NCBI GenBank assembly: GCA_963708295.1
Contig: CAVPSJ010000014.1
Span: forward strand, 319,935 to 351,934
Direction: 5' to 3'
DNA from: an uncultured delta proteobacterium
Lineage (GTDB): Bacteria; Desulfobacterota; BSN033; UBA1163
DNA: 32,000 nucleotides
In this document: positions 10,884 through 30,748 of the stretch, one piece after another
How the letters are laid out: each line of letters begins with the position of its first letter
How positions within the stretch are numbered: the first letter of the stretch is position 1
Made by a program: the position numbers and the translations under genes
The notes under the pieces: model-generated
What the model was told of the DNA's origin: nothing
Database searches by the model: none
Seen by the model: the letters and a program-made list of their open reading frames with translations, nothing else

Positions 10884-10937
10884 GTTCGTCCTCCTTCCCT
10901 TGTTCGGTTATTGAAATTTTGAAATCTCTTCTCAGGT

Positions 10938-11951: not shown

Positions 11952-12934
11952 TCAGCCCTTTGTCTTCTTTCGGACCACTTCGTCCCAGTTGATGCTGTAC
12001 GAGGGCTTTCTTCCCTCCAGCACATCGACGGCGTTTTGAGCGGCCCCTTCAGCAAGCTGTGCCACTGCATCCCTGGTTAATGCACCCGTGTGCGGGGTGA
12101 GAATCACATTTTCCATTTGAAAGAACGGATGGGACGTTTCTGGGGGTTCCTTCGCGAAGACATCGAGGCCTGCCCCGGCGATCATTCCCTGCTGAAGGGC
12201 TTCGATCAGTGCCGGTTCATCAATGATCTCCCCCCGTGAGGTGTTGATGAGAAACGCCGTAGGTTTCATCCAGCTCAATTCTTTCTTTCCGATGAGTCTT
12301 TGCGTCTCGCTGCTCAACGGCACGTGGACGGAGAGAAAGTCGGACGTCTTGAACATCTCTTCTCTCTCTTTGGTAAACACAAGACCGGGAAGATGGAGAT
12401 CCTCGGGGTTGAGATAGGGATCGTAGCCCCAGACTTCCAACCCCAGGGGTGGCAGATGTCAGCCACAATTCTGCCGATCCTGCCCAGACCGATGAGGCCG
12501 ACCCTTTTTCCGAAAAGGCCCATGGGGCGATATTCGTACCGTGATTTGAAGTTTCCTTTTCGGACTTCTCTGTTGAGATAGAAGATCTGTTTTGACAGAG
12601 CCAGGATGAGCGTCACGGCAAGCTCTGCAACAAAACGGTCCTGGGGGCCCTTGACGCCGCACACCACGACGCTGGATTCCGTGGCGGCTTCGATGTCTAC
12701 ATTATCGAGTCCTCCTCCGGTCCGGGAGATCACCTCCAGATGGGGTGCTGATTCGATCATCGATCGGGTGACTTTGGTGGCCGTCCGGACGATGAGGCCC
12801 TGGACTTCTTTCAACCGTTGCCCCACCGATTCTCCTGAGGGGTCCGGACTGATCAGGAAGTCCACCTTTCCTTCGAGCACCTTGATGCCGGCTTCATCAA
12901 TGGGTTCTGCCAAGAGTACCTTTTTCAACGTCAA
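11952..12934 (-). pseudogene. D-isomer-specific 2-hydroxyacid dehydrogenase (PGDH-like) interrupted by one frameshift
   Basis: The N-part is ORF 12314-12934 (..VGLIGLGRIGRIVADICHP). The C-part is ORF 11952-12440 (LEVWGYDPY...FLSVHVPL...INTSRGEIID..ALIEALQ.G.IAGAGLDVF..EP......NVILTPH). The junction is at the run CACCCCTGGGG (12441-12450). The span is 1 nt short of a multiple of 3. Confidence 0.8.
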
Positions 12935-12958: not shown

Positions 12959-13132
12959 CTACAGCAATTGGTCCAGTAACTCCATGAGTTCTGGATCGCC
13001 GCCTGCGGGTGGAGACCAGTTCACATGGATCACCGCCACCCCCTGAATTTGCAGGGCTTCAGCAAAATCTGCCACTCCGATATTGACCGCGATCGGGCCC
13101 TGGTGAAGGAGCTCTTCCAGTTTATTTGGCAC
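12959..13132 (-). CDS. Small conserved-looking ORF (57 aa) translationally coupled to fdrA
   Basis: The GTG at 13132 overlaps the FdrA stop (GTGCCAAATAA). Product: (M)PNKLEELLHQGPIAVNIGVADFAEALQIQGVAVIHVNWSPPAGGDPELMELLDQLL. No family was recognised with certainty. It could instead be a frameshifted C-terminal extension of FdrA. Confidence 0.45.
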   Translation of the reverse strand: MPNKLEELLHQGPIAVNIGVADFAEALQIQGVAVIHVNWSPPAGGDPELMELLDQLL

Positions 13133-14687: not shown

Positions 14688-14726
14688 TCTATTTCTCCGG
14701 CTATCCTGACCGACCCTCCCTTGTAT

Positions 14727-14865
14727 CCCCTCCCGTCAAGGGAGGGGGAAATAAATGATTTCCCTCTCCCCTTATCCCTCCTTCCCTCCCTTTACAAAAG
14801 GGAGGAATTCCCCCCCTTTGACAAAGAGAGGTAACCTGCCTGCGCGAAGTCCCGCCTTGCGGGAC
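14727..14865. repeat. Cluster of G/C-tract hairpin repeats in the DUF1116 / fdrA gap
   Basis: CCCCTCCC-GTCAA-GGGAGGGG (14727-14747), CCTCCCTTT-ACA-AAAGGGAGG (14785-14805) and GTCCCGC-CTT-GCGGGAC (14849-14865). Same family as 3408-3500 and 4829-4868. Confidence 0.6.
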
Positions 14866-14966
14866 GAAGGCAAGGGGAGATGCTCTGAAACCTATGTTTT
14901 CTTTATTATGAACTCCTTGGTCATTTCAGGTTCTTCTATTCCCCATTCCGCATTCTGCATTTGCAG

Positions 14967-16232
14967 TTACGATCGGCCCAGCCCGTATTTTCGGCCAAAG
15001 CTCAACAGGGCCTTTTTGAAGCATTCCATTGGAGCGCGGACCAGCCCGGCTCCGATAATGGAATGACCGGGATTCTTATTGGCGATCGCGGTGTCGATGA
15101 TGGGAGCAATTCCTGTCTGGACCACTTTACGTATATCGATACCTACTGGAGCTCCCTGAAAACCAAGCACAGGCATGCGGTAATTGGGACTGGTGCTCAC
15201 CGTGATCTGACGCATTTCCCGGTTATACGCCATCGCCTCCTCGGGCGTGCCACCGACCAGACTCAGGATTCCTGGGGCACCACACAGAACGAGCCCGCCC
15301 CAACCTACGGTCTCCGTAATCGCAGAATCTCCCATATCGGCGCCTGCGTCTTTTTCGCTGTAGCCGGGCAGGTACAGTCCATCCACTTTCGGCGACGGTG
15401 CGGTGAACCATTCATCTCCAAGGCCGCTGACACGGATTCCAAACTCCGTCCCATTCCGTGCCATGGTCACAACGACGGTGCTGTGCTCAATGCCCATTGC
15501 AGGGTCCGCCGAAGCTTTACCCGACGCCATGGAAAGACCAAGGAAAATGAGTTCATGGTTCGTAATATAATTGATCGTACCCACCAGGTGATCTGTTTTG
15601 ACGCCCGTTTCAATCATCGGCGCCACCATTGCATTTGCAAATAGACTTGAGGCAGCCATGGATCGATTATGCAACTCATCCCCCATTTGCAGTGCTTTAG
15701 CAATAATGGGCTTGAGAGGAAGTCCTCCCTTTTGAAGGAGACCTTTTCTGAGCGACGGTGCCCAGACATCTCGCCAGAGGCGCAAGCCCTGTAGAGCCGA
15801 GTCGCTGTAATCGCCGAACTGCTGGCGTCCCTCCACCTGGCGACAGAAAGCCCGATTCGCAAAGGCTTTATTCTCGACGACCCACACGGGCATCGACCAA
15901 GAGATCGTGCCAGCCATTGGGCCGACCGCGTGGTGGTGATGATTGGGTTCAATCTTAATGGCTCCGCTCTCGAGGAGCTTCACTGCCTCCTCTTCGTTCT
16001 TGGCCCAACCTTCGAAAAGAACCACACCGATCATGGCACCCCTCTGGGCACCGCACATGTGCTGCCAATCAATAGGCGGTCCGGAGTGCAGGATCATTCG
16101 ATCTTCAAGACCCGGGATGACTTCTCCTGCGGGTGCAATATCGACCAGGACAGGATCAGCGGCATTGATCCGTCTCACGGTCTCTAAGTTGGCAGCTTCA
16201 ATCTTCTGTTTGATGTCTTCTGCAGGTGTCAA
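14967..16232 (-). CDS. ylbE: DUF1116 protein (YlbE / AllG-type subunit)
   Basis: The N-terminus ..IEAANLETVRRINAADPVLVDIAPAGEVIPGLEDRMILHSGPPIDW is typical of DUF1116. The track start is the TTG at 16271. The TTG at 16232 has a strong SD (GGAGGA 5 nt upstream) and is preferred. Confidence 0.85.
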   Translation of the reverse strand: MTPAEDIKQKIEAANLETVRRINAADPVLVDIAPAGEVIPGLEDRMILHSGPPIDWQHMCGAQRGAMIGVVLFEGWAKNEEEAVKLLESGAIKIEPNHHHHAVGPMAGTISWSMPVWVVENKAFANRAFCRQVEGRQQFGDYSDSALQGLRLWRDVWAPSLRKGLLQKGGLPLKPIIAKALQMGDELHNRSMAASSLFANAMVAPMIETGVKTDHLVGTINYITNHELIFLGLSMASGKASADPAMGIEHSTVVVTMARNGTEFGIRVSGLGDEWFTAPSPKVDGLYLPGYSEKDAGADMGDSAITETVGWGGLVLCGAPGILSLVGGTPEEAMAYNREMRQITVSTSPNYRMPVLGFQGAPVGIDIRKVVQTGIAPIIDTAIANKNPGHSIIGAGLVRAPMECFKKALLSFGRKYGLGRS

Positions 16233-16387
16233 CGTTCTCCTCCATTCGTATCTTTGACCTTCTCTTCTCAACCTCGCTTCCTTCCAGAGTCCTATTCCCT
16301 TTGCCTATCAAAGACCGCAATTCTAAAACTTTGAAGATATTCTCGCTCGCCCGACTCTCCCGATTCTTTCATAGCTTCAGGGAGAGA

Positions 16388-17368
16388 TCAGGCAGGAAGC
16401 GCACTCAATTCCCCTTCGACAAAGAGCATGCCGGTCAGCATTCCCGCCAGGATATCCCATCCGGATGTTTCGCCGATCCCGAGTAAGCGCTCGGTTTCTC
16501 CCAGGGTTCGACTTAGGTCTCGGCCATTCAACAATGACACGACCACATCATGGAGCGGTTTGGGTCCGTGGCCGAGGGCATGATCTCTGAGAATCGCATG
16601 GCTGATGGGATGGGTCTGTGTGGACGCCCATTCGATCAGATCCATGACAGGTTCGTCTTCCCAGCGGAAGTGCTGAGGGTACGCTGTCTTGAGCGCGTGA
16701 GCGGCGAAGAGCAGACCTCCGAGAAAATCATCTCCTGAAGGCGTCAGGCCCGGACCGAGGCCGACCAGTTCCCTGCTTCTCCGCGCCACCTCCGTCATAT
16801 CGAGGTCCAAACAGGCCGTTGTAAGATCAAGCATGGCATTGCGAGCTTTGGCGAGGAAGGGATCTGCGTTCGAAATCGCCTGCTTCTTGCCGCCCACGAC
16901 CGACGAAATGAGTGAAATCATCCGGCCGAGCCCTTTTGCGTTCCCAAGCCTCGTGACGGCCTCAACCCACTGGCGGATGTGCGCCTGAACGGTAGGGAGC
17001 GGCTCTGCGTTCCCCGGTCCGACGCCGGAGGGCTTCCATTCCGTTGCTGGCTCCAGATCAACGGTTGTTCCCTCCGGAAATCGTATCCACGGACCATCGA
17101 CGAAGAAGTTTTGGCCTACGCTAATAGACCTCGGCCGAAACGAAACCAGAATGCACCGCCTGTGCATGGCCAGCCCTTGCTGTGACATCCACAAAATTTC
17201 TCCGTCTCCGCTGACCAAGTAGACCGATGCAGAAAGAACAGCAAGCACTTTTCCTGAGAAACCATGCTGAGCAAGCAGGCCCTTGGCCCTCGATCCGATC
17301 TGCTTTGCATGATAGAGAAAAGGCTTCTCGTTTTCATTAAGAACAAAACAATCGGCAATAGGCTGCAT
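16388..17368 (-). CDS. ylbF: DUF2877 protein (YlbF / AllH-type subunit)
   Basis: Contains the GLGPGLTPSGDDFLGGLL signature that I associate with DUF2877. Its position next to DUF1116 and FdrA matches the fdrA-ylbE-ylbF arrangement. The ATG at 17368 lies 1 nt after the SBP stop; the track start at 17398 overlaps the SBP gene. Confidence 0.7.
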   Translation of the reverse strand: MQPIADCFVLNENEKPFLYHAKQIGSRAKGLLAQHGFSGKVLAVLSASVYLVSGDGEILWMSQQGLAMHRRCILVSFRPRSISVGQNFFVDGPWIRFPEGTTVDLEPATEWKPSGVGPGNAEPLPTVQAHIRQWVEAVTRLGNAKGLGRMISLISSVVGGKKQAISNADPFLAKARNAMLDLTTACLDLDMTEVARRSRELVGLGPGLTPSGDDFLGGLLFAAHALKTAYPQHFRWEDEPVMDLIEWASTQTHPISHAILRDHALGHGPKPLHDVVVSLLNGRDLSRTLGETERLLGIGETSGWDILAGMLTGMLFVEGELSALPA

Positions 17369-17369
17369 C

Positions 17370-18473
17370 TTACTTCGTCTGACCGATGACGCCTTCAACG
17401 AGCCAGTCCATTTTCCCCAGGGCTGCGATGGGAAATGCCTCGCCGGCCTTCACCCGCTCAACGCCTTTGTTATCCTTGATCGGACCCTGGAAAACATTCA
17501 GCTTGCCGTTGATAAATTCTTGTTTTTTTGTGTTGACCAGCTTTATTGCATCAGACGGGACGGCGGGGCCGAAGGGTGCGATGGTGAGATAATCACTCGC
17601 AAGGTTGCCTAAGAGGGCCTCGCTTTTCCAAGTCCCCTCCATGACCTGTTTGGCAAACCGGGTGTAGAGTTCACCCCAGGTAAAGGCAACGCCGCTGATC
17701 CAGCCCTTGGGAGCGAACTTTTGTACGCCGATGTAATGGTAGCCTACGGAGAAGGCCCCGCGCTTTTCAGCAGCCTGCACCACCGTAATCGGAGAGTCTA
17801 CAATGACACCAAGGACATCCACGCCTTGATCCAAGAGGGCGTTTGCAGCGGTCGCTTCCTTTCCAGGATCCAGGAAGGTTCCGGTAAAGACCACGCGTGT
17901 TTCCGCTTTCGGATTGACGGACTGCACTCCAAGGTGAAAGGCGTTCACGTTCGCCAGGAAAAAGCTGATGGGAAGGGCGACCACATAGCCCAGCTTATTT
18001 GTCTTGGTGGTTTTGCCCGCCGCAATACCCATCAGATAAAAGGCCTCCGGAGTGCTTGCCCAGTAAGTGCCCAGGTTCGGGGCGAGCTTGTATCCCCCGG
18101 GGTGCACAAACTTGACGTCCGGGTATTTTTTAGCCACTCTCAAGGCCGGATCCAGATAGCCAAAGCTTGCGGGGATGATGAGCTGGGCTCCTTGCCTGAT
18201 CATGTTCTCCATCACGCGCTCAGCATCGGCGCCTTCCGGGACATTCTCGACTTCGATCAGCTCGACGTTCGGAAGATTTTTCTTCATGACCTGCACACCC
18301 TCGGCATGGGCCTGGTTGTAACCGGCGTCTGCGATGGAGCCAATATGCAGGATGCCTACCTTCAATTTTGGCTGTGCAGAGGGTGTTCCTGTAAGGCTCA
18401 GTACGATGGCCACGACAAGGCCGGTTAAAAGAACCAGAAACGCAACTCCATTGTTTGATCTCTTCTTGTTCAT
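17370..18473 (-). CDS. BMP-family ABC transporter substrate-binding protein (PnrA/Med-like)
   Basis: 367 aa with a signal peptide. The motifs KVGILHIGSIADAGYNQAHAEG, VALPISF and FTGTFLDPGK fit the basic-membrane-protein (purine/nucleoside-binding) family. Confidence 0.9.
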   Translation of the reverse strand: MNKKRSNNGVAFLVLLTGLVVAIVLSLTGTPSAQPKLKVGILHIGSIADAGYNQAHAEGVQVMKKNLPNVELIEVENVPEGADAERVMENMIRQGAQLIIPASFGYLDPALRVAKKYPDVKFVHPGGYKLAPNLGTYWASTPEAFYLMGIAAGKTTKTNKLGYVVALPISFFLANVNAFHLGVQSVNPKAETRVVFTGTFLDPGKEATAANALLDQGVDVLGVIVDSPITVVQAAEKRGAFSVGYHYIGVQKFAPKGWISGVAFTWGELYTRFAKQVMEGTWKSEALLGNLASDYLTIAPFGPAVPSDAIKLVNTKKQEFINGKLNVFQGPIKDNKGVERVKAGEAFPIAALGKMDWLVEGVIGQTK

Positions 18474-18493
18474 TTTTTCCTCCTCTTTCTTAA

Positions 18494-18518
18494 TGGCTGG
18501 ATGTTCCAGCCCGTTTTT
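18494..18518 (+). terminator. Terminator-like hairpin oriented antisense to the operon
   Basis: GGCTGGA-TGT-TCCAGCC is followed by CGTTTTTT on the plus strand. It lies in the 5' leader of the minus-strand BMP SBP gene, and no plus-strand gene precedes it. Confidence 0.3.
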
Positions 18519-18583
18519 TGAAATTCTTAGTTAATATTCTTCGTTCTAAATTCACAGTTGGAAACAATTTTGTGATAAATCCT

Positions 18584-18901
18584 AAATTCAAAACTCTAAA
18601 CTCTAAATAAACTCAAAACCCAAAACGGACTAAAATCCAAAACTTTCAAATCGAAATATTTGATGATCTTGTAGAAAGTCGTCTCACCGGTGAAAACCGG
18701 TGTCCAGTGTTCTTAGAAGCTCCAAAATACTGGATGTGCTCGCTCGCTTCGCTCACTCCGCCTCCCTTCGGTCGCCCGGCTGGAGTTTACCCCGTACTTA
18801 TTACGGGGCCGGAATGACGAATTAGGTTTTTGCGACATTTTACGACTGCATCAAATTTGGATTTTGGGTTTATTTAGGGTTTGTTGTTTAGAGTTTAGAA
18901 T
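18584..18901. mobile_element. MITE-like foldback element (family 1), about 320 bp
   Basis: The terminal arms AATTCAAAACTCTAAAC (18584-18600) and GTTTAGAGTTTAGAATT (18885-18901) are inverted repeats (16/17). Further imperfect arm pairing runs inward (AAAATCCAAA/TTTGGATTTT, AGTCGT/ACGACT). The core holds perfect hairpins CACCGGT-GAAA-ACCGGTG and CCCCGTA-CTTAT-TACGGGG. There is no ORF. It sits inside the operon, between permease and SBP genes. Confidence 0.6.
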
Positions 18902-18956
18902 TCAAGTTCCCTTTTTATAGATGTTATATATAAATTTCCAGACTGAAACAAGTGAG

Positions 18957-19874
18957 TCATTCCGTCCCTCGGAAGATCTGGCCTAAACTGGCCGGCGCTG
19001 CATGCCGTCGTGCGCCGCCCCAGACCGCAAGAACTCCCAGGCTCAAAAGATACGGAAGCATGTCAAGCAAGAAGGGTGAGATGGGCACCCCCCTTGCCTG
19101 CATCTGAAGCTGCAGGGCAATCGCACCGCCGAAAAGTAATGCTCCGACGATCGCCCGGAGCGGATGCCACTTGGAGAAAATGACCAAAGCAACGGCAACA
19201 AACCCTCTGCCCGCTGTCATCCATTCGGCCCAAGTCTTTGCCACTGCCAATGAGAGATGCGCTCCTGCGATGCCGCCGAGGAGGCCGGCGATGAACAGTG
19301 CCTCATACTGCACTCTGTACGGATGCATCCCCGCGGCAAAGGCGGCCGTGGGTTTTTCTCCGACTGCCCGCAAGCTCAGTCCCCATCGCGTGTAGAAGAG
19401 TGCCCACCATACCAGAATGGCAATCGGGGTGACGAGGTAAACCAGTATATCATAATGGAAGAGGGCTGCACCAGCGACGGGAAGGTCTGAGAGGATTGGA
19501 ATTCGGATCTCATTCAGACCTTTGATTTGGCTGCCGATGCAGGGGGCGCCCAGGAGGGCGCTGAGTCCCACTCCGCAGAACATCAACGCCAGTCCGCTCG
19601 CCAGCTGATTTGCCCTGCGCTCGATCACCAGGTATCCGAAGATCAGGTTGAAGAGAGCCCCTGCCAGAGCGGCTGCGAAGACACCGAGCGCGGGGTTGCC
19701 CGTCTTGACCGTTACGTTGAAGCCCACCACCGCTCCCATGAGCATCACACCCTCCAGGCCCAGGTTAATGATGCCCGCCCGCTCACCGATGACCTCCCCG
19801 AGGGTGGCATAGAGGAGTGGTGTTCCGGCGACAATCGACCCTGAGAGGAGACCTTGTAACGAAGATCCTATCAT
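18957..19874 (-). CDS. ABC transporter permease (BMP/sugar-type, second permease)
   Basis: Polytopic membrane protein. The track ORF extends to 20258 over the upstream permease with an Arg-rich nonsense N-terminus. The ATG at 19874 (MIGSSLQGLLSG...) overlaps the upstream stop (ATGA at 19871-19874). Confidence 0.85.
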   Translation of the reverse strand: MIGSSLQGLLSGSIVAGTPLLYATLGEVIGERAGIINLGLEGVMLMGAVVGFNVTVKTGNPALGVFAAALAGALFNLIFGYLVIERRANQLASGLALMFCGVGLSALLGAPCIGSQIKGLNEIRIPILSDLPVAGAALFHYDILVYLVTPIAILVWWALFYTRWGLSLRAVGEKPTAAFAAGMHPYRVQYEALFIAGLLGGIAGAHLSLAVAKTWAEWMTAGRGFVAVALVIFSKWHPLRAIVGALLFGGAIALQLQMQARGVPISPFLLDMLPYLLSLGVLAVWGGARRHAAPASLGQIFRGTE

Positions 19875-20929
19875 TTGACTCCACCCTTTCCCCCCTGACG
19901 GGCAAGGACGACGAACAAGATGAGGGCGTTCAGAATGTTTACCGCCGAGCCTGGGAGCCCATGGGCCATCTGCAGAATGTCGCCGCCCGCCGTGACGATG
20001 GCAAGGAGAAAAGCCGCAGCCACGATGCCCAAAGGGTTTCCGCCGGCCATCCAGCTGATCAGGAAACCGATGAATCCATAGCCCGGTGAGAGACTGGGTC
20101 GAAGACGGCCTTGGATTGCAGAGACCTCGATCATTCCGGCCAGCCCGGCGAGTCCGCCGCCGATAAACATGAGCAGGATAACATAGCGGCTGATCGGAAT
20201 TCCATTGCGCCGTGCCGCTTCTGGATTGCCGCCGATGGCTCGCATCTCGAGGCCCCACCGCGTCCTGGAGAGAGCAAAATAGAACAGGATAAGCACGGCA
20301 AGAGGAAAAACGAACCCCCCATGGACTCGCGTGGAGGCAAAAGAGGGCAGGGTGGCGGCATCGACAAACTGGGCCGTCTGCGGGTAATTTGCGCTTTCCA
20401 GGTCTTTCCAGGGGCCAAAGACAAAGAAATTTACGAGCAGGATGGCCACGTAGTTCAGCAACAGAGTAGAGATGGTCTCACTCACCCAACCCTTGGCGCG
20501 CAGGATGCCCGAAATAGATGCCCACAGTCCCCCTCCGAGAACTCCCAGAAGGGAAATGAAAGGTAAAAGAATCCATGCGGGTAGGGTGTTTAAGTTGAGG
20601 GCTCCCCAGGTGGCAAATAAAGCTCCGATATAGAGTTGACCTTCCCCCCCCACATTGATGAGCCAGATTCTGGCCGGTACTGCCACAGCGACCGCTGTGA
20701 GCGTGAGAGGGATCATCTTCACCAGGATTTCAGAGAGACCGTAGGTGCTCCCGAGCGTACTCGAGAAAATATCCGCATAGGCTTTGATCGGGTTTTTGCC
20801 GAAGGCCAACAACAAAATGGCAAAGACTATGAAGGCAAGGGCAAAGAGTCCGAAGAACCGGATTGAGCTCGCCCACCCTGTGCTACGAAAACGGGGAACT
20901 TTGTTGGCCTGTTCAGCGGTGAGACCCAT
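19871..20929 (-). CDS. ABC transporter permease (BMP/sugar-type, first permease)
   Basis: 352 aa polytopic membrane protein. Its ATG overlaps the ATPase gene end by 17 nt, with SD-like AGGGGGG upstream. Confidence 0.85.
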   Translation of the reverse strand: MGLTAEQANKVPRFRSTGWASSIRFFGLFALAFIVFAILLLAFGKNPIKAYADIFSSTLGSTYGLSEILVKMIPLTLTAVAVAVPARIWLINVGGEGQLYIGALFATWGALNLNTLPAWILLPFISLLGVLGGGLWASISGILRAKGWVSETISTLLLNYVAILLVNFFVFGPWKDLESANYPQTAQFVDAATLPSFASTRVHGGFVFPLAVLILFYFALSRTRWGLEMRAIGGNPEAARRNGIPISRYVILLMFIGGGLAGLAGMIEVSAIQGRLRPSLSPGYGFIGFLISWMAGGNPLGIVAAAFLLAIVTAGGDILQMAHGLPGSAVNILNALILFVVLARQGGKGGVK

Positions 20930-22463
20930 ATTCCCCCCTGGAACCCGTCATCAGATAACCCACGTCGTTGAGGGTGAGATCGTGCGGCGTGCCCGTGCCC
21001 GCAATCCGCCCGCGAAATACAACCACCAGACGATCGCTTAGGGCGAAAAGCTCTTCCAGATCTTCCGAAATCAGGAGCACGCCAGCTCCCTCGTTCCGTG
21101 ATCTCCTGAACAATTCCCGCGCCGCGATCGCGCTCTGCACATCCAGACCCCGTGTCGGGTAGAAGGCGAGAATCAATCTGGGGTTCCGCGCCATCTCCTG
21201 TGCCAGGATCACACGCTGGAGGTTCCCTCCTGAGAGCGCTCCCACGGGTTTGTTCATGGAAGGGATTTCAAAGCCCAGAAGCGTCAAGGACCGCTCGATG
21301 TCATCCCGAGCCAATTTCCAGTCCATCGAGAGGCCACCCTGGCGGGCATACCTGCGGATATTACTGAGCGCCATGTTCTCTTCCACGGTCAGACCTGCAA
21401 CGGCAGCCATTCCCAGCGGATCTTCTGGGATGAAAGCCACGCCGCTCGATCGTATTCGAGCAACGGACCAGTGGGTCGCATTTTGACCCCACAGATATTT
21501 GGCCCCCGTTTCACACCTTTGCAGTCCCAGGATCACGTCCCCAAGCTCTTTCTGGCCGTTCCCCGAAACGCCGGCAACACCGACGATTTCGCCCGGCAGG
21601 ACGGTGAGATTGATTTCTTTGAGGCTTGTCGCTTGGTCCTCAACGGGCGTACTGACCTGCTTCAATTGTAGGAGAGGCGGAAGATTCTCTTGGGAGGGTT
21701 CACGCGGGCTGCGCGGTGATTCAGAGATTCCTTTGCCGAACATCAAAGAGACCAGTCCGTCCTCCGTTGCCTCGGAACCCTTAAGCGTACCCGTGACCTG
21801 GCCGCGGCGCATGACCGTGATCCGATCCGCGCAAGCAAGAACCTCCTTCAGCTTGTGGGTGATAAAAACCACGGCAAATCCATCGCGCCGCAATTGGGCG
21901 AAGACTCGGAAAAGTCCTTCGACTTCGTGCGGGGCCAAGCTCCGGGTCGGCTCATCGAGGATGAGAATCTGCGCATCTGCGAGCAGGAGCTTGAGAACTT
22001 CCACTTTCTGCTTCTCACCCACAGAGAGCCGCCAGACCAGGGCGGGAGGATCCACCTGAAGGTCGAATCGTTTCGAAATCTCTTCGATTCGTCCGATCAT
22101 CGCCCTCTTATTTAGAACGACGGGCAGGTTGGGCAAAAAGAGCGAAATGTTTTCAGTGACGGTCATTGCGGGAATCAGGGTAAAATCCTGGAAGACCATG
22201 CCGATCCGCGATTGCTTGGCGTCGTGAGGCGACCGAATCTGCAGACGCTGGTCTCTCAGTCGGATCTCTCCCGAGTCCGCCCGGTAAAAGCCGTACAAGA
22301 TCTTCATGAGGGTGCTCTTACCGGCTCCATTCTCCCCCAGCAGGGCATGAACCTCACCGCTGTAAATCTCCAGATCGACATGATCATTGGCGATCACGCC
22401 CGGAAAAGATTTAGTAATGCCTCGCAAGGCAAGGAGGGGGGAAGATGGAGTTTTAGCAGGCAC
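20913..22463 (-). CDS. ABC transporter ATP-binding protein, duplicated ATPase domains
   Basis: 516 aa. First Walker A GENGAGKST, signature LSVGEKQKV, Walker B LILDEP. The second domain has GVSGNGQKE, LSGGNLQRV and a degenerate Walker B. GTG start, with no clear SD. Confidence 0.9.
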   Translation of the reverse strand: MPAKTPSSPLLALRGITKSFPGVIANDHVDLEIYSGEVHALLGENGAGKSTLMKILYGFYRADSGEIRLRDQRLQIRSPHDAKQSRIGMVFQDFTLIPAMTVTENISLFLPNLPVVLNKRAMIGRIEEISKRFDLQVDPPALVWRLSVGEKQKVEVLKLLLADAQILILDEPTRSLAPHEVEGLFRVFAQLRRDGFAVVFITHKLKEVLACADRITVMRRGQVTGTLKGSEATEDGLVSLMFGKGISESPRSPREPSQENLPPLLQLKQVSTPVEDQATSLKEINLTVLPGEIVGVAGVSGNGQKELGDVILGLQRCETGAKYLWGQNATHWSVARIRSSGVAFIPEDPLGMAAVAGLTVEENMALSNIRRYARQGGLSMDWKLARDDIERSLTLLGFEIPSMNKPVGALSGGNLQRVILAQEMARNPRLILAFYPTRGLDVQSAIAARELFRRSRNEGAGVLLISEDLEELFALSDRLVVVFRGRIAGTGTPHDLTLNDVGYLMTGSRGEYGSHR

Positions 22464-22588
22464 AAAAAGTTTTTAGCACAAATTCCTTTTTTTGTGAATG
22501 GAAAAATTTCGGAAGGGAATTACCACGTTAAGAATGATGCCCCACTGCCGCTGCAGTCCCGCTATGGCGGGATTACAATATCAGGTTT

Positions 22589-22793
22589 ACCGCAGAGGCG
22601 CGGAAGTCGTTGAGAAAGTTTTTTTCTGATCCAATTGGGAGACGGCAATTGGATCAGAAACTGCTAACCTTCGAGCAAACGACCTGGACTCGTTGAAGGC
22701 CACGCGAGCGAGTGAGCGCCCGATCATAATAGAGTCACAGAACCCTTTTTGTTTGGCGGCCTCTCACCGCTGCGGCCTTTGCGTCTCTGCGAT
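22589..22793. mobile_element. MITE-like foldback element (family 2), about 205 bp
   Basis: Imperfect terminal inverted repeats ACCGCAGAGGCGCGGAAG (22589-22606) and GCCTTTGCGTCTCTGCGAT (22775-22793). A perfect central 15 bp hairpin TTTCTGATCCAATTG-N8-CAATTGGATCAGAAA lies at 22623-22660. It sits between arcC and the ABC ATPase gene. Confidence 0.55.
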
Positions 22794-22826
22794 GAGAATC
22801 CTATTTTGGACAAGGGTGAACGGGGT

Positions 22827-23771
22827 TTACTTTGTGATCGTCGTTCCAGCCTCGCCTTTGAACGCATTTAGAAGATTTTCAGGCGATGTGATGATCGCCT
22901 TTTCACCTCCGTTTTCGAGGAAATTTATGATGGCCTCGATTTTTGGCTTCATGGAGCCGGGCTTGAAATGACCTTCTTCCAGATATCGCTTTATCTCGGG
23001 GAGGAAGACACGACTCAGAGGCCGTTGGTCCTTCTGGCCAAAGTTGAGATAGACGGCATCTATTGCGGTAGAAATGATAAGCGTGTCCGCACCGAGGCCA
23101 TTCGCCATGACAGCAGATCCCCAATCCTTGTCGATGACGGCCTCGACGCCTTCTATTTCACCCTGTTCATTCAGGATCACGGGGACGCCGCCTCCGCCCG
23201 CGGCTATAACAATGTATCCCTTTTGCACCAATAATTTGATGACGTCAAGTTCGATGATTTTCTTCGGTATCGGAGAAGGGACAACCCGCCTGTAACCCCG
23301 GCCCGCATCCTCTGCAACCTCCCAGCCGAAGCCCTTTTTGTTAGCGAGGGCTTCTTCTTCGGACATAAACGACCCAATGGGTTTCGTGGGCCGTTCAAAG
23401 GATTTGTCTTTTCTGTCGACGATCGTTTGGGTCACGACGGCTGTCACTTTTTTATCAATTCCTCTTCTGTGAAACTCGTTTAACAGGGCCTTTTCGATCA
23501 TATACCCGATGGCTCCCTGGGTGTCTGCCCCGCATATATCCAGCGGGATCAGAGGCAGTTCGTTCCGGGACAGCTCGCCTCTTCGGTATATAAATCCCAC
23601 TTGCGGGCCATTGCCGTGGGTGATCACCAGGCGGACGCCTTCTGCAATCAGTTCGCCAATGTATTTTGCCGTTTCCTGGACCATTTCATATTGGAAAGAC
23701 AAAGCGATGTGGTTCTTATCCTTGATAAGAGAATTCCCCCCCATCGCCAAAACAGCGAGATGAGATCTCAT
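22827..23771 (-). CDS. arcC: Carbamate kinase
   Basis: 314 aa. The motifs AVLAMGGNSL, VITHGNGPQVG and GGGGVPV, together with the length, are diagnostic. SD GGAGG lies upstream. Confidence 0.9.
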   Translation of the reverse strand: MRSHLAVLAMGGNSLIKDKNHIALSFQYEMVQETAKYIGELIAEGVRLVITHGNGPQVGFIYRRGELSRNELPLIPLDICGADTQGAIGYMIEKALLNEFHRRGIDKKVTAVVTQTIVDRKDKSFERPTKPIGSFMSEEEALANKKGFGWEVAEDAGRGYRRVVPSPIPKKIIELDVIKLLVQKGYIVIAAGGGGVPVILNEQGEIEGVEAVIDKDWGSAVMANGLGADTLIISTAIDAVYLNFGQKDQRPLSRVFLPEIKRYLEEGHFKPGSMKPKIEAIINFLENGGEKAIITSPENLLNAFKGEAGTTITK

Positions 23772-25284: not shown

Positions 25285-25949
25285 CTACTCATACCACTTC
25301 GTAAACTCATCCGGCTTTTGCTTGAGGCTGCGGTAGGTATTTAATTTGGCCTTCTCGTCCGGGTAGCCCAGTGATATGCAGATAACCAGCTTTTTGCTCT
25401 CCGCTATACCGAGGAATTTTTTTATCTCCAGTGCGTAGTTGGTCACCGAGGCCTGCAGGCAGCTCTCCACACCAAGCGAGTGCGCCGCCAGAATCAGGTT
25501 CTGGGCAAACAGCCCCATGTCGAAGATCGACCACTCTCCCAGCGACCCGTCAATGAAGAGGAAGACGGCGCACGGCGCGCCGTAGAACTCAAAGTTCATC
25601 AGGCGCAATTTTTCTCTTCCCTCCTCATCATCCCTCGCCACCCCGAGCGTGCTGAGCCTACGGGCGCCATGCTCCCTGGGAGCGCTCCTCCAGCGCCGAC
25701 GGCCAGCCCTTGGGCATGGGCAGGTCGGGACTGGTCGGCGCCTTTGCCTTCGCCAGTTCCAGCAGTTTCCGACCCAGTTCATTCTTCTTTTTACCACTTA
25801 CCACGACCACCTCCCAGGGCTGGGTGTTGGTATAGGAGGGGCTGTTGCTCGCCGCCTGTAATATCTTTTTCATCACATCTCTGGTGATGGGATTGGGCTT
25901 GAAAGCCGCGAATGCTCCGCCTCGTCTTGATACCTTCCAGGATTTCCAT
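25285..25949 (-). pseudogene. Nitroreductase family protein interrupted by two frameshifts
   Basis: The true start is the ATG at 25949 (SD GGAGG), giving MEILEGIKTRRSIRGF. Shift 1 is at GGCTTTCAAG (about 25895-25907), leading into KPNPITRDVMKKILQAASNSPSYTNTQPWEVVVV. Shift 2 is at TCCCAGGG (about 25673-25680), leading into REHGARRLSTLGVARDDEEGREKLRLMNFEFYGAP...ISLGYPDE. The span is 2 nt longer than a multiple of 3. Confidence 0.8.
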
Positions 25950-26337
25950 CGGTAATACCTCCAGTCAAATATTTTTAAAATCGCCAATCATTAAAAGATC
26001 AGCAAAGCCTAGCCTTTTTCAAAAGGTCGGAGATTATTGACCCGACGTAAGTCATCTTTAAGTGATAAGAACTCGCTTTAGGATGAATGGAATATACTAA
26101 GAACGAAGTTGTATGTCAACGACAAAAGACCGTTTCAAATCAAGCATACTCTGTAAAATTATCTGGTTGCGGACTTAAGGAAGAACTCTTTCTTTTTCCA
26201 AACTCCCGCAGGTCTCGATGCCGATTTAGCGCGCTTCCACCTACTAATACTCTGGCCAAAGCTGTTAGAGAATTGATGATTTCCGATTGAAAGTGAGTGG
26301 GATGGTGAAGGAATGATTTGTCCTGAAAGATACTTAA

Positions 26338-26676
26338 TCAAACAGACACTGTTAAACCGATATGCAACCCCCTGAGAACGCGTTCGGTGCTGGAAAGATC
26401 CCCAATCACTCTCTGCATCGGAAGAGGAAATGTTTTTACCAGAGTTGGGATAGCAACAATCTGACCTGCTTTTGCAAGCTGGGGATTCCTTAAAATATCA
26501 ACTACGGTAATTCGGCATTTGTCATTTAGATGTTCCTGGCAGATCCTCGTGAGATTGGTAAAGGCCGCTATCGATTTTGCTGTCTTCCCTGCAACATAGA
26601 GTCGGAAATCGAATACTCCAGTCACCCTTCCTCCCCTTTTTGCCTTTTGCCGTGGTCTTCTCTTCCGCCCCTTCAT
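26338..26676 (-). CDS. kaiB: KaiB family protein (paralogue 3)
   Basis: FRLYVAGKTAKSIAAFTNLTRICQEHL...ITVVDILRNPQLAKAGQIVAIPTLVKTFPLPMQRVIGDLSSTERVL matches the KaiB core. It has a Lys/Arg-rich N-terminal extension and is the most divergent of the three. Confidence 0.85.
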   Translation of the reverse strand: MKGRKRRPRQKAKRGGRVTGVFDFRLYVAGKTAKSIAAFTNLTRICQEHLNDKCRITVVDILRNPQLAKAGQIVAIPTLVKTFPLPMQRVIGDLSSTERVLRGLHIGLTVSV

Positions 26677-26700
26677 TTGTGGTTGCCTTTAAGATTCCCC

Positions 26701-27882
26701 CTATCTCTCCAAGGGCCATGATACCCGGATGGTCGTTCCTGATCCATGAATAGACTCAATGGCAAACGAACCTCCTGTAAGCTCGGCCCGTTCCTTCATG
26801 CTGGTAAGTCCTAACCCCCTCCCGGGATTCTCAGCATATAACTTTTCTTCAAGGTCGAACCCCCGGCCATTATCCTCAATAACCATTTCTATCTTATCAG
26901 TTTTCTTCAGGGAGAGGGTCGCAACCTCTGCTTTGCTGTGTTTGGCAACATTGTTAAAAGCCTCCTGGCAGATTCTGTAGATTACTGTTTTCAGATGATC
27001 AGGAACATCTTTTTCTTCTATGTTCATCTGGGTTTTGATATGAATGCTTAAATAGGTTTTTTGAAATTCCCTGAAGAACCAGTTAAGGGTGGGTAAGATA
27101 CCCAGATCGTCGAGGCTGGAGGGCCGTAAAGCCATCTGGATTCTCCGAGATTCTTCGATGGTTTTTTGAATCATAGGGATGATGCTCTCCGCGTCACTAC
27201 TGGCACCCTTCTGAAGAACTTGTTCCATCCTAAATTTGATAGCCCCTAAGGATCCCCCAAGGCTGTCATGAATTTCGCTGGCAAGTAGTTTTCTCTCATT
27301 CTCTTGTGCGATGAGGAGCTGGGAAGAGAGGTACCTCAGCCGCTCTTCTGACTCCTTCAACTGCTGTTCCGCTCTCTTGCGCTCGGTCAAATCCATTACC
27401 ACCATACAAACTGCAGACACTTCATCTGTCATGAGCGGATTGAAGGAAAGATATACCGAAACAAGCTGTCCGTCTCCTCTTTTGAGGGAAATCTCTACCC
27501 TGCTGGCTTCCTGTTTGCCTCTTTGGAACGCAGATTCAAAGCTGACCGTGTCTGTCGGACCGATGAATCGGTATATCGAGGAGCCTATCACCTGTTCACT
27601 GGGTATTAAAAGTAGTTCTGCAAGGCGGCCGTTACAATAGAGGATCGTTCCACCCGGGTCCAGTGTCACAGCCCCCTCATTCATGGTTTCGACATAAACA
27701 CGGTAGGGTTGTTCCGCGCCCTTCAAGGTGTAGACCTGATCTCCTTGAGGGCTTGAGATAACCAAGGCGTCAACTTCGCCTTTCCGAATGGCACTAAGTG
27801 TCTCCTCAGCTTCTTCGAGGCGCATCCGAAGATCTTCTATTTGAAGAAGATGCTTGTCCTTTCTTTTTGTATCTTTTTTCAT
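26701..27882 (-). CDS. Soluble PAS sensor histidine kinase, HisKA_3 / HATPase_c type
   Basis: An N-terminal coiled segment and a PAS-like domain (EGAVTLDPGGTILYCNGRLAELL) are followed by a coiled linker. H-box LLASEIHDSLGGSL (HisKA_3), N-box QEAFNNVAKHS, G1 DNGRGF, G2 GLGLTSMKERAELTGG. No transmembrane segment. Confidence 0.85.
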   Translation of the reverse strand: MKKDTKRKDKHLLQIEDLRMRLEEAEETLSAIRKGEVDALVISSPQGDQVYTLKGAEQPYRVYVETMNEGAVTLDPGGTILYCNGRLAELLLIPSEQVIGSSIYRFIGPTDTVSFESAFQRGKQEASRVEISLKRGDGQLVSVYLSFNPLMTDEVSAVCMVVMDLTERKRAEQQLKESEERLRYLSSQLLIAQENERKLLASEIHDSLGGSLGAIKFRMEQVLQKGASSDAESIIPMIQKTIEESRRIQMALRPSSLDDLGILPTLNWFFREFQKTYLSIHIKTQMNIEEKDVPDHLKTVIYRICQEAFNNVAKHSKAEVATLSLKKTDKIEMVIEDNGRGFDLEEKLYAENPGRGLGLTSMKERAELTGGSFAIESIHGSGTTIRVSWPLER

Positions 27883-27890
27883 AACATCAC

Positions 27891-28232
27891 CTATTTTTTT
27901 GGTGTTAAATCTAATCCCAGGACAATCCGTCCCGTATCCGACATGTCGCCGATGAATCTGCGTAAGGGCAGAGGAAGTTTCTTGATGAGTGTGGGTGTAG
28001 CAATGATTTGTTCTCCTTCGGCAAGCACAGGTCTCTGGTAGATATCGATGACTTCAAGATCGCACCGGCCATGGAGCTCCTCGTCGCAGATTTTTTTGAT
28101 GTTCTGGATGGCTCGCGTGGATTTGGGTGTCATGCCTGTCACGTATAAACGCAGCACATACTTCTCTTTTAATGACTTTTTTAGAACCCTCTCAAATGAT
28201 TTAGTTGAATCTTTAACTTTTTTTTGTTTCAT
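27891..28232 (-). CDS. kaiB: KaiB family protein (paralogue 2)
   Basis: LRLYVTGMTPKSTRAIQNIKKICDEEL...LEVIDIYQRPVLAEGEQIIATPTLIKKLPLPLRRFIGDMSD. It has a Lys-rich N-terminal extension. Its stop lies 8 nt before the kinase ATG. Confidence 0.85.
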   Translation of the reverse strand: MKQKKVKDSTKSFERVLKKSLKEKYVLRLYVTGMTPKSTRAIQNIKKICDEELHGRCDLEVIDIYQRPVLAEGEQIIATPTLIKKLPLPLRRFIGDMSDTGRIVLGLDLTPKK

Positions 28233-28261
28233 AACTTATCTCCTACAATGGCCCCTTTCTT

Positions 28262-28588
28262 CTACATTTTCGGACGAACGTCAAGTCCAACCAGAACACG
28301 CAGGGTGTTTGAGAGATCACCGATGATTTTCTTTATCGGGGGAGGAAGCTTCCTCACCAGGGTCGGAATGGCCAGGATTTGATCTCCGCTGGCGAGTTGA
28401 GGATTCTTCAGAAGGTCGATAACCTCAATATGATATTTGCCCTCGAGATGCTCCTCGCAGATCTTCTTGAGATTGGCAAAGGCTGCTAACGATTTCGGTG
28501 TCTGCCCTGCCACATAAAGTCTTAATTCCCACGTGTCTTTCTTCGGTTTCGCATTTTTTCCGGGTCCGGCTGCCACTTTTCTTTTCAT
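28262..28588 (-). CDS. kaiB: KaiB family protein (paralogue 1)
   Basis: [73 protein letters not shown] is close to canonical KaiB. Its ATG overlaps the kaiC stop (ATGA at 28585-28588), with SD GGAGG inside the kaiC 3' end. Confidence 0.9.
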
Positions 28589-30309
28589 CTATTCCTCCTC
28601 TCAGAGTTTTCATCTTCCTTGCGCATGCCGGCTATCTTTTCCCGGAGTTTCGAAACACCGTTTCGTCGCATTTTTTCCTGCTCGGTCAGTTTATTCAGCT
28701 CCTGCTCTTCTGCTTGGATCTGGGCACGCAATGAAGCGATCTGGGCTTCCAATGCCTTGCGCTTGGTCTCCACATTCAGCTTTCTCCGCTCAATCTCCTT
28801 CTGATGCGACAATTCAATATCCCTCTCCTGGGTTTCTTGAGATATTCGCGCCGAGCCTGTCAACACGCCTGACGGGCCGACATAGACATCGATCAGATCG
28901 ATTCCCTTACCGGTTAATAAGAACTCCCGGATCTGGTTGGAGTGCGCCATGCCTCGGGATTTGAGGATGTACAGACCACGATTGCGTTCCCCTCCAATTT
29001 CGATGTCGCGAAGCAGGAGCCAGGTATCGGATAACGAAGACATTCCCACCTCCGTCTGTTCAAGAGGGCTACCCGCGCCTGTCAGGGTCGTAAAGAGTGC
29101 GGTTGTCTGATTGGATTTCATCTCGTCCAGCAAACGAGTCAGCATGGCCTTGACATCAGTTTCACTGGCAACGCTGCCGAGATTAGTCACGGGGTCCACA
29201 ATAACAACTTTTGGTTTGAACTCCTCAATGAACTTGTGCATGGATGCCAGATGGGCTTCCAACCCATAGACAGTCGGTCGCTCTGCATGAAATTTTAGAA
29301 GTCCCTTTTCCACCCATGGTTGAAGGTCGATGCCAATCGAGCGCATATTGCGAATAATCTGAGAGGGGGACTCTTCAAAGGCAAAAAAGGCAGATCGCTC
29401 CCCGCGGCGGCACGCTGCATCGACAAAGTGCGCTGCGATGCTGGTCTTACCTGTCCCAGCGGTTCCAGATACAAGAATACCGCTGCCTCGGAAATATCCT
29501 TTTCCTCCCAGCATGGTGTCGAGGCGAGGGATGCCTGTCGAAATTCGTTGGCTTGTGACAATATGCTGCAATCCAAGGGATGTAATGGGCATGACGTCTA
29601 TGCCCCGTTCGTCAATCAGGAACGGGAACTCATTGGTGCCGTGGGTCGAGCCCCGGTACTTGACGACGCGCAGACGGCGGGTGGAGATCTGATTCGCCAC
29701 TCTGTGATCGAGGAGGATCACGCAATCGGAAACATATTCTTCAAGACCGTGCCGCGTCAGGGCGTTTTCCCCTCGCTCCCCTGTGATGATGGCTGTCATG
29801 CCTTTCTTTTTCAGCCAACGAAAGAGGCGGCGAAGTTCTGCCCGGAGGATGGAAGGATTGGGCAGTCCCGCGAAGAGCGATTCAATCGTATCCAGGACGA
29901 CTCTTTTTGCACCGATCGAATCAATCGCATTGCCAAGGCGAATGAAGAGACCTTCAAGGTCGTATTCGCCGGTTTCCTCGATCTCGCTCCGCTCAATATG
30001 AACATAGTCGATGAAAAGTCTCTTGGAAGCGGTCAGGCGATTCAGGTCAAAGCCGAGGGAGGCCACATTCTTTGTCAATTCCTCACCGGATTCCTCAAAT
30101 GACATGAAGACCCCCGGTTCATTAAACTGGATCGCCCCCCGAACAAGAAACTCCATGCCGAAAAGTGTCTTCCCGGACCCGGCACCGCCGCACACCAGGG
30201 TGGGGCGACCCTTGGGTAGCCCCCCATTCGTGATTTCATCAAAGCCGGCTATTCCCGTAGGAACTTTCTGCAAACCACCTCTGAGCAATCTTGTCTTTTC
30301 TTTGGCCAT
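28585..30309 (-). CDS. kaiC: KaiC (double RecA/DnaB-like domain) with an 86-residue C-terminal coiled-coil-like extension
   Basis: CI has Walker A GGAGSGKT and catalytic FEES. CII has Walker A GTAGTGKT and FEES. A Ser-Ser pair in [12 protein letters not shown] sits at the position of the cyanobacterial S431/T432 phosphosites. The track start is a TTG at 30330; the ATG at 30309 (MAKEKTRLL) has SD GAGGGAG 7 nt upstream and is preferred. Confidence 0.9.
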
Positions 30310-30700: not shown

Positions 30701-30748
30701 AAAAAAAGAGGGTGCGCTCAAGGTTTTGCTAACCTTGAACGCACCCTC
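30701..30748 (-). terminator. Rho-independent terminator downstream of the CocE/NonD gene
   Basis: The minus strand reads GAGGGTGCGTTCAAGGTT-AGCAA-AACCTTGAGCGCACCCTC, an 18 bp stem with one mismatch, followed directly by TTTTTTT. Confidence 0.7.

Follow-up and report, generated by a model that had tools for sequence, protein, structure and literature searches.

The closest described relatives of the gene cluster reported here are Kai operons of purple bacteria. Rhodobacter sphaeroides (Cereibacter) KD131 carries on its plasmid pRSKD131A the order kaiC, kaiB and an HWE-type kinase gene, with a single KaiB and without KaiA. Members of the KaiC2 clade have a Ser-Ser pair, lack KaiA and are extended at the C-terminus by about 50 residues (Pitsawong et al., 2023, PMC10076222). 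In R. sphaeroides KaiC, this extension forms a coiled-coil bundle joining two hexamers, which makes KaiA unnecessary, and the clock works as an hourglass driven by the ATP:ADP ratio (PMC10076222). A "kaiC-B-PAS/HK operon" was also described for Rhodopseudomonas palustris (Ma et al., 2016, PMC4794148). Here, we describe a related Kai unit with five genes, among them three KaiB genes, which is located in a 32,000-nucleotide stretch of DNA (the window) from an uncultured delta proteobacterium (GenBank assembly GCA_963708295.1, contig CAVPSJ010000014.1, positions 319,935 to 351,934 of the forward strand).

In the window, kaiC, kaiB1, kaiB2, the gene of a soluble PAS-HisKA_3 histidine kinase and kaiB3 are tightly packed on the minus strand (Table 1), as determined from the listed open reading frames (ORFs) and by reading the junctions. 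The start codon of kaiB1 overlaps the stop codon of kaiC as ATGA. Gaps of 29 nt (kaiB1 to kaiB2, containing AGGAG), 8 nt (kaiB2 to the kinase gene) and 24 nt (kinase gene to kaiB3) follow. An earlier reading made from the letters of this DNA (below, the sequence-only reading) had proposed precisely this unit, and its coordinates and junctions agree with ours. It had also noticed the absence of kaiA and of a response regulator, and indeed Pfam and jackhmmer seeded with CheY and NarL revealed neither a Response_reg nor a KaiA domain in the main ORFs of the 32-kb window.

The locus resembles the KD131 system in several respects. Both have a KaiC2-type KaiC that ends in a coiled coil and carries a Ser-Ser pair, KaiB1 is 68% identical over the core to the R. 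sphaeroides KaiB (KaiB-RS), and kaiC and kaiB are followed by a kinase with the same N-terminal helix+PAS module. In contrast to KD131, the window has two further KaiBs, termed beta and gamma below, and the kinase core is HisKA_3 instead of HWE. The R. palustris operon, which we liken by its description, follows the same logic, being KaiA-less with a PAS kinase downstream; however, it has one KaiB where the window has three, and it belongs to a phototrophic host for which fitness under light-dark cycles was demonstrated. The order of the purple-bacterial operon (kaiC, kaiB, PAS-first sensor, no kaiA) is present in the window, but not its single kaiB. The expectation of the sequence-only reading that described systems combine one kaiB with a PAS kinase is borne out by both the KD131 plasmid and the operon of PMC4794148.

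Several KaiBs in one genome are also found in Synechocystis sp. PCC 6803, which has KaiB1-3, KaiC1-3 and KaiA3 (PMC11372060, PMC5520375) and whose KaiC2/KaiB2 pair is of the same broad subgroup. There, every KaiB is paired with a KaiC of its own and the pairs are encoded at separate loci, whereas three KaiBs share one kaiC and one operon in the window. More generally, a double-domain KaiC, a KaiB with the three prolines of the fold-switching half and a histidine kinase as output are shared with cyanobacterial KaiABC. Unlike the KaiABC/SasA/CikA system, the window has no KaiA, a Ser-Ser instead of a Ser-Thr pair and a C-terminal coiled coil in KaiC, and its kinase carries a PAS module at the place of the KaiB-like domain of SasA. 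A match to a part of the window was found, according to the RefSeq annotation, on the conjugative plasmid p3 of Pararhizobium qamdonense T808, where kaiC, alpha KaiB, beta KaiB and a helix+PAS protein form the same two-KaiB core. The plasmid locus is without a gamma KaiB, and RefSeq lists its hybrid output protein as a response regulator. No study of this Kai locus was found in the literature searched.

Taking these comparisons together, we consider it reasonably probable that the window encodes a KaiA-less module of the KaiC2 type, built like the kaiC-kaiB-PAS/kinase operon of purple bacteria and having two extra KaiB paralogues.

KaiC type and the two widespread KaiB families

The Pfam domain KaiC/ATPase (PF06745) was found twice in KaiC (e-value of 1e-110), and the NCBIfam model NF006799 was passed with 742.6 bits (cut-off 408). 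The cyanobacterial model TIGR02655 gave 348 bits, below its cut-off of 546, as expected outside cyanobacteria. Among solved structures, R. sphaeroides KaiC is the best relative (8dba, e-value of 1.6e-196, 657 bits), compared to approximately 335 bits for S. elongatus KaiC. The alignment with 8dba reaches residue 548 of the query and residue 539 of the chain, i.e., into the C-terminal tail. This tail, a coiled coil with many heptad-like E, K, Q, A and L residues, extends from approximately residue 489 to 574. The motifs named in the sequence-only reading were all recovered: Walker A loops (GGAGSGKT at residue 41, GTAGTGKT at 282), FEES at 71 and 311 with the catalytic EE pairs 72-73 and 312-313, and the phosphosite GMSSL at 422 with S424/S425. 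A loss of catalytic residues was not seen on alignment, and S424/S425 align column for column with the E-E of the R. sphaeroides S413E/S414E structure 8fwi. KaiC1 and KaiC3 have a Ser-Thr pair where the Ser-Ser pair stands. In all tested defining features, the window KaiC is, as judged from its sequence, a KaiC2-type protein. A TTG at 30330 is also open as an alternative kaiC start; relatives are called at 574 amino acids (aa), the length given by the ATG.

All three KaiBs clearly exceed the Pfam cut-off for KaiB (PF07689; 93.0 bits for KaiB1, 89.2 for KaiB2 and 84.9 for KaiB3 versus 27). The scores of the cyanobacterial equivalog model NF006798 (109.8, 99.9 and 77.7, respectively) stay below its cut-off of 110, and all three proteins are below the TIGR02654 cut-off of 145.3. 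They are accordingly classed here as proteins of the KaiB family and not as cyanobacterial equivalogs.

One genome per species was surveyed, giving the 80 nearest KaiC loci with KaiCs 63-91% identical to that of the window. ORFs were called in these loci and then searched with a KaiB profile. Two tandem KaiB genes directly follow kaiC in 55 of the 80, and in 17 a lone KaiB gene immediately precedes that of the output protein; the others are ambiguous or cut by contig ends. Loci with two KaiBs span at least ten phyla. The bacterial ones belong to Bacteroidota, Chloroflexota, Planctomycetota, Verrucomicrobiota, Acidobacteriota, Ignavibacteria, Thermodesulfobacteriota as well as Beta- and Gammaproteobacteria, and two archaeal lineages, Methanoperedens and Bathyarchaeota, are represented. 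In this part of the KaiC2 family, two KaiBs in cis are, on this survey, the usual condition. The sequence-only reading had suggested a survey for kaiC with two or more adjacent kaiB genes and had regarded three KaiBs in cis around the output kinase as an architecture not recognized as described; the survey leaves only the third KaiB unusual, and even three KaiBs occur in a second gene order (see below).

The first- and second-position KaiBs form separate groups in a neighbor-joining (NJ) tree, with the exception of one locus (L034) whose first KaiB is placed at the group boundary. We name the first-position family, which includes the R. sphaeroides type, alpha and the second-position family beta. 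Hidden Markov models (HMMs) built for the two separate them without overlap, since the alpha-minus-beta score ranges from +27 to +43 for first-position and from -38 to -11.5 for second-position proteins. KaiB1 has a difference of +38 bits and, among solved structures, is closest to R. sphaeroides KaiB (8fwj_M, e-value of 2.7e-30). KaiB-RS itself is weakly alpha by this measure (+11.8 versus +38 for KaiB1). KaiB2, at -30 bits, falls into the NJ group that unites all second-position KaiBs. At least 120 homologs of KaiB2 with at least 73% identity were found, nearly all of them 113 aa long, and its N-terminal tail is conserved, F13 being invariant and E14 nearly so. Sequences of SasA and of S. 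elongatus KaiB served as rough outgroups only, and no conclusion rests on them. By tree and profile, beta is a second, ancient KaiB family; in most related loci, its gene separates the alpha gene from that of the output protein. The clade placement which the sequence-only reading had called for is thereby given: KaiC is of the KaiC2 type, KaiB1 alpha, KaiB2 beta and KaiB3, as detailed below, gamma.

KaiC itself has a sole column which separates loci with two KaiBs from those with one, i.e., residue 537 in the coiled-coil tail, which is E in 89% of the former and A in 82% of the latter as well as in KD131. This split may simply reflect phylogeny and is too thin for interpretation. Two loci of the survey have additional Kai genes. 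In L029 (7291-12006), two KaiC2 modules are arranged head to tail, kaiC-alpha-beta followed by kaiC-alpha, and the Bathyarchaeota locus L036 (9079-12393) has two further divergent KaiB-like ORFs upstream of kaiC-alpha-beta.

In the full-text literature searched, which lacks most subscription journals, no description of tandem or triple KaiBs beside kaiC was found. The claim that the three-KaiB architecture is undescribed holds in this respect; however, the architecture is not unique to the window, as the same five-gene order is present in about nine other contigs.

The gamma family and the conserved helix+PAS module

KaiB3 belongs to a family of its own, termed gamma, which makes up 57 of the top 120 matches of a KaiB3 protein search (67-95% core identity to KaiB3). 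Its HMM scores lie between alpha and beta, and its signature (TAKS, FTNLTRIC, DKC, VKTFPLPM) differs from both. Across 56 sequences, 18 columns are invariant and 34 nearly invariant. Gamma has been seen only in Thermodesulfobacteriota-type sequences, and the few members with a name are assigned to Thermodesulfobacteriota or "Deltaproteobacteria".

Gamma genes occur in four arrangements. The first is the exact window order, kaiC-alpha-beta-kinase-gamma, with differing flanking genes in the other contigs (L001, L081, L082/L088, L087, L091, L094, L095, L100, L171). In the second, kaiC-alpha-beta-kinase and a gamma-like KaiB are followed by an extra output gene (L002, 13622-15851). This gene encodes a sigma-54 activator that likewise begins with the helix+PAS module, giving a second, transcriptional output. 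L164 and L167, on contigs that are truncated or in pieces, appear similar to L002. In L002 and L164, the KaiB that follows the kinase has a reduced length of 78-85 aa. A tblastn search with the sigma-54 activator of L002 detected no lost second output gene downstream of kaiB3 in the window. The third arrangement, kaiC-gamma-KaiB-KaiB-PAS kinase with a gamma of 122 aa, was found in three contigs (P0046 contig; L168, 5274-6410; L169, 2115-3296). Two phage-type integrase genes are located just upstream of kaiC in the P0046 contig. Three tandem KaiBs are present in L143 (2033-3065), too, but the first of them, with 45% identity to KaiB3, does not resemble gamma. In the fourth arrangement (L083, 6846-8300; ENA ERZ25039477 contig_18266), gamma follows a receiver-HisKA_3-HATPase kinase, with a PAS kinase and a single-domain receiver upstream and no kaiC within 8 kb. 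The core of the L083 kinase scores 414 bits against the window core (self-score 466), above the cores of several five-gene loci. Where upstream context was available, every close gamma copy follows a kinase with the HisKA_3 core type of the window.

Selection was estimated as the ratio of nonsynonymous to synonymous substitution rates (dN/dS) across six five-gene loci. The values are 0.14 for kaiC, 0.16 for kaiB1, 0.15 for kaiB2, 0.26 for the kinase gene and 0.43 for kaiB3, the latter being composed of 0.38 in the core and an almost neutral 0.89 in the first 20 codons. Since some gene callers also start kaiB3 17 codons later, giving 95 aa, the true start may be the GTG at 26625, in which case the basic N-terminal tail of gamma may not be translated. 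We conclude that gamma is a real gene under selection, more loosely constrained than its neighbors, and that the third KaiB, the only unusual part of the unit, is a rare add-on. Downstream, a 60-aa ORF with a TTG start (26159-26341, minus strand) overlaps the kaiB3 stop. This region differs in relatives, with L081 having a convergent MutY gene at the same place, and the ORF is probably not a gene.

These numbers bear on the explanation that the extra KaiBs are redundant duplicates, kept by dosage or drift, with KaiB3 in particular being a decaying copy without a role of its own. We think this quite improbable. In its favor, kaiB3 has the highest dN/dS of the five genes, with its first 20 codons close to neutrality, it is missing from L172 and shortened in L002 and L164, and the general KaiB motifs are kept in all three proteins. 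On the other hand, alpha and beta are consistently distinct in at least ten phyla, in a fixed gene order and under strong purifying selection, which does not fit redundancy; gamma, for its part, has its invariant columns, its own signature and several gene arrangements.

The kinase contains PAS, HisKA_3 (PF07730, 27.7 bits versus a cut-off of 24) and HATPase_c (PF02518, 53.8 bits) domains, an H-box EIHD at H205 as well as N, G1 and G2 boxes. No membrane helix is predicted, the highest 19-residue Kyte-Doolittle mean being 1.2, and the description as a soluble PAS-HisKA_3 kinase is thus confirmed. Its N-terminus consists of a helix and then the PAS domain, without a KaiB domain, and it is hence no fusion of the SasA type. 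No NarL/LuxR-type regulator gene is adjacent to it in the window; NarL-like regulators do stand beside the module in some related loci, e.g., L071 and L073.

In 67 loci, a module of approximately 180 residues, formed by a helix with the motif AEETL-AIR-GEVDA and the PAS domain, is found at the very N-terminus of the protein downstream of the KaiBs. It scores 77-152 bits, compared to approximately 17-31 bits for other PAS domains in the same loci. The fused outputs vary and comprise HisKA_3, HisKA_2, HisKA with or without receiver, GGDEF-EAL, a sigma-54 activator, or nothing at all, as in 235-aa proteins of Bacteroidota. The module is also N-terminal in the HWE kinase of KD131 (68 bits) and in the Pararhizobium protein; a close solved structure was not found. 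An initial result of whole-protein phmmer searches, according to which a HisKA_3 kinase follows the KaiBs everywhere, was withdrawn: the kinase core alone matched only 50, all close relatives, per-domain coordinates put the shared part in the N-terminal helix+PAS region, and the Pfam outputs vary. The conserved partner of the Kai genes is, in the compared sequences, this module and not the HisKA_3 kinase as such. That the input module is constant while the outputs are swapped points to this module as the likely site at which the output protein receives the Kai state.

In cyanobacterial SasA, a KaiB-like N-terminal domain is fused to the kinase. By analogy, KaiB2 and perhaps KaiB3 might be free-standing docking adaptors which bring the output protein to the CI ring of KaiC, as if SasA had been split. 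In favor of this, kaiB2 stops only 8 nt before the kinase start, with no Shine-Dalgarno-like sequence visible by eye in the gap, and the second KaiB overlaps or abuts the downstream gene in many related loci. In L002, the succession of KaiB and PAS-module protein occurs twice (beta and kinase, then gamma-like KaiB and sigma-54 activator), and gamma accompanies the kinase core in the clade of the window even without kaiC. Weak support also comes from the SasA-type model NF006800, in which KaiB2 scores best of the three (31.8 bits, versus 17.6 for KaiB1 and 23.0 for KaiB3); however, all three scores are far below the cut-off of 342 bits. Further, 17 loci and KD131 couple a single KaiB straight to the PAS-module protein, and a dedicated adaptor is consequently not required. 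Co-evolution was assessed by mirror-tree analysis. The correlations of distance matrices with that of KaiC are high (r of 0.82 for alpha, 0.79 for beta and 0.82 for the PAS module), but no extra signal between beta and the PAS module is left after controlling for KaiC (partial r of -0.01). On balance, we regard the split-adaptor explanation as unlikely. The sequence-only reading had gone further in suggesting inhibitor, kinase adaptor and reset factor as roles of the three KaiBs, for which no direct support was obtained; in particular, the co-evolution test revealed no special link between KaiB2 and the PAS module.

Proposed mechanism and the fold-switch residues

Under our preferred reading of a KaiA-less KaiC2 module with two added KaiBs, the unit could work as follows. 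KaiC would autophosphorylate S424/S425 at high ATP:ADP. KaiB1, after its fold switch, would bind the CI ring and lead to dephosphorylation when ATP:ADP falls, similar to the R. sphaeroides hourglass. KaiB2 might be a second binder of the CI ring, tuning or sharing it; SasA, which shares the CI ring with KaiB, is a precedent for two KaiB-fold proteins on one ring. The helix+PAS module may hand over the state of KaiBC to the kinase, which would then act on an unlinked NarL-type regulator. KaiB3 could be an accessory factor tied to the kinase core and may favor the switched, binding-competent fold. The individual roles of KaiB2 and KaiB3 are proposed with much less confidence than the overall picture.

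Isomerization of three KaiB prolines limits the switch (PMC11551320), and these prolines (P58, P65 and P67 in KaiB-RS) are kept in KaiB1, KaiB2 and KaiB3 as well as in 96% or more of the members of each of the three families. KaiB1 and KaiB2 retain G and D of the GLD motif. KaiB3 is the only one of the three with changes of the kind known to favor the switched fold. In R. sphaeroides KaiB, V83D helps to flip the protein to this fold (PMC10808063). The equivalent position is R or K in 24 of 30 close gamma members and V, I or L in alpha and beta, which suggests that gamma is shifted toward the binding-competent fold. In KaiB3, the residue concerned is R102. Of the notable differences in the fold-switching half that the sequence-only reading had pointed out, those of KaiB3 stand; overall, however, the divergence is modest, with all prolines kept.

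A further peculiarity concerns cysteines. The first is invariant in all three families, and a second, eight residues away, is found in all 57 gamma sequences and in 44 of 56 sequences of the local beta clade, whereas alpha and most beta members have Tyr. In KaiB3, the invariant pair is C46/C54, and the equivalents in KaiB2 are C49 and C57. Such a pair could possibly be redox-sensitive. This connects to the explanation that the unit is a switch for stress or energy state and not a timer, with the extra KaiBs adding inputs, e.g., redox via the cysteines. We lean against it, but consider it a possibility to be kept in mind. Apart from the conservation of the second cysteine, it is supported by the host lineage, since the related metagenome-assembled genomes (MAGs) are Thermodesulfobacteriota from peat, wetland and soil metagenomes and not phototrophic. 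Moreover, the R. sphaeroides system is itself driven by ATP:ADP, and Legionella KaiBC, as cited in PMC11665890 and PMC10808063, was reported in stress response and gives a precedent for such a role of kaiBC. Conversely, a disulfide between the two cysteines is putative, and the closeness of KaiC to the R. sphaeroides hourglass protein favors similar kinetics. Further, the explanation concerns physiology and is compatible with the mechanism proposed above.

At the other extreme, KaiC2 modules with several KaiBs could represent a distinct class of Kai device, richer than an hourglass, in which paralogues with different fold-switch equilibria bind one KaiC dodecamer sequentially or in competition. 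Alpha would then be biased to the ground state and gamma, by its charged residue at the V83 position, to the switched fold, possibly redox-gated via the Cys pair, and the KaiB set would supply the delayed feedback which KaiA gives in cyanobacteria. We rate this as very unlikely. If it were true, the module could show dynamics beyond an hourglass, perhaps sustained oscillation or multi-state switching, and helix+PAS would be the dedicated coupling domain that reads its state and that has been joined in evolution to outputs of many kinds.

Several observations weigh against the preferred KaiC2 module with added KaiBs or against parts of the mechanism proposed for it. The D-to-H change in the GLD motif of KaiB3 was considered as a family trait comparable to the known switch mutation D91R, but was dropped as it occurs only in the window and L081. 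AlphaFold2 models from family-specific alignments were of low confidence, with a pLDDT (predicted local distance difference test) of 58.9 for KaiB3, in which only the C-terminal helix was formed, and of 57.7 for KaiB2, with a ground-state-like order of elements; at such values (58-59), the models say nothing reliable on fold preference. The correlations with KaiC fit KaiC as a hub, but equally a cassette inherited as a unit. The weaker constraint on kaiB3 (0.43) together with its absence from the close relative L172 implies that kaiB3 may be dispensable. The helix+PAS subfamily is large, with 2,775 cluster representatives at an e-value of at most 1e-30, and is surely not confined to Kai loci. 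Finally, a day-night role is at most putative, since the host seems to be an anaerobe of soil or wetland that is not phototrophic.

Genomic context and significance

The edges of the unit are marked by two pattern-scan matches. A terminator-like hairpin is situated upstream, between a peptidase gene and kaiC, and a promoter-like site downstream of kaiB3, ahead of a nitroreductase gene. Within the unit, the scan gave no terminator-like site except two weak matches with 5-bp stems inside the coding sequence of kaiC, and such matches are equally frequent in shuffled sequence. The boundary signals and the short gaps fit a single five-gene transcription unit, as far as consensus matches can indicate. 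No Rfam family matched in the window.

Table 1. Features of the Kai unit and of its surroundings (window positions).
Feature	Position	Strand	Basis or remark
kaiC, KaiC2 type, 574 aa	28585..30309	-	PF06745 twice, NF006799, best solved relative 8dba
kaiB1, alpha-family KaiB, 108 aa	28262..28588	-	Pfam KaiB 93 bits; alpha versus beta HMM
kaiB2, beta-family KaiB, 113 aa	27891..28232	-	Pfam KaiB 89 bits; HMM and NJ tree
Soluble histidine kinase, 393 aa: N-terminal helix+PAS module, HisKA_3 (H205), HATPase_c	26701..27882	-	Pfam
Helix+PAS module, kinase residues 1-185	27328..27882	-	Conserved after KaiBs in related loci
kaiB3, gamma-family KaiB, 112 aa from ATG (95 aa from GTG 26625)	26338..26676	-	Pfam KaiB 85 bits
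Terminator-like hairpin, 18-bp stem then T run	30708..30748	-	Pattern scan, consensus match only
Promoter-like site TTGACA-17-TATATT, 11/12 matches	26091..26119	-	Pattern scan, consensus match only
Split nitroreductase	25285-25987	-	Two overlapping ORFs
Split D-2-hydroxyacid dehydrogenase	11952-12934	-	Two overlapping ORFs
Split GntR/FCD regulator	10846-11761	-	Two overlapping ORFs

In relatives (window, L081, L171 and L172), the Kai proteins are 82-98% identical, while the flanking genes are entirely different, e.g., peptidase and nitroreductase, VapBC and MutY, or a lactamase-fold protein and UbiD. Outside the clade, KaiC has its closest relatives in archaea, Chloroflexota and Planctomycetota, and the KD131 and Pararhizobium systems are located on plasmids. 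By these comparisons, horizontal movement of the Kai module appears likely. Peat and wetland samples yielded the nearest MAGs, which are Thermodesulfobacteriota. The same kinase protein, with the same neighbors, was also found on the ENA contig ERZ25039502:contig_232566.

Three genes of the window are each split by frameshifts into two overlapping ORFs (Table 1), whereas the five genes of the Kai unit are intact. The near-identical contig L170 has an intact nitroreductase of 220 aa, which suggests that the frameshifts are indel errors of a long-read assembly or, alternatively, recent pseudogenes. Elsewhere in the window (13122-23771, minus strand), genes for the oxamate carbamoyltransferase subunits AllG and AllH, an FdrA-like CoA-ligase protein and a carbamate-kinase-like protein are found alongside a Bmp/PnrA-type ABC transporter. 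This cluster looks like a pathway for anaerobic purine or allantoin breakdown.

The kaiC-kaiB-PAS/kinase operon itself is known; the interest of the present one lies in the alpha, beta and gamma KaiB families and in the conserved coupling module. Kai work outside cyanobacteria rests on models with a single KaiB, i.e., R. sphaeroides, R. palustris and Legionella. In this KaiC2 branch, however, most loci have two anciently diverged KaiBs, to which a Thermodesulfobacteriota-type lineage adds a third. KaiB is a textbook metamorphic protein, and natural sets of KaiB paralogues acting on a single KaiC would be material for probing how the fold-switch equilibrium is tuned. Since two-KaiB loci are carried by cultured bacteria (Mucilaginibacter rivuli HMF5004 and P. 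qamdonense T808 on its plasmid p3), they are within experimental reach. Finally, the conserved helix+PAS partner suggests where the state of the clock may be passed to the output in KaiA-less systems.

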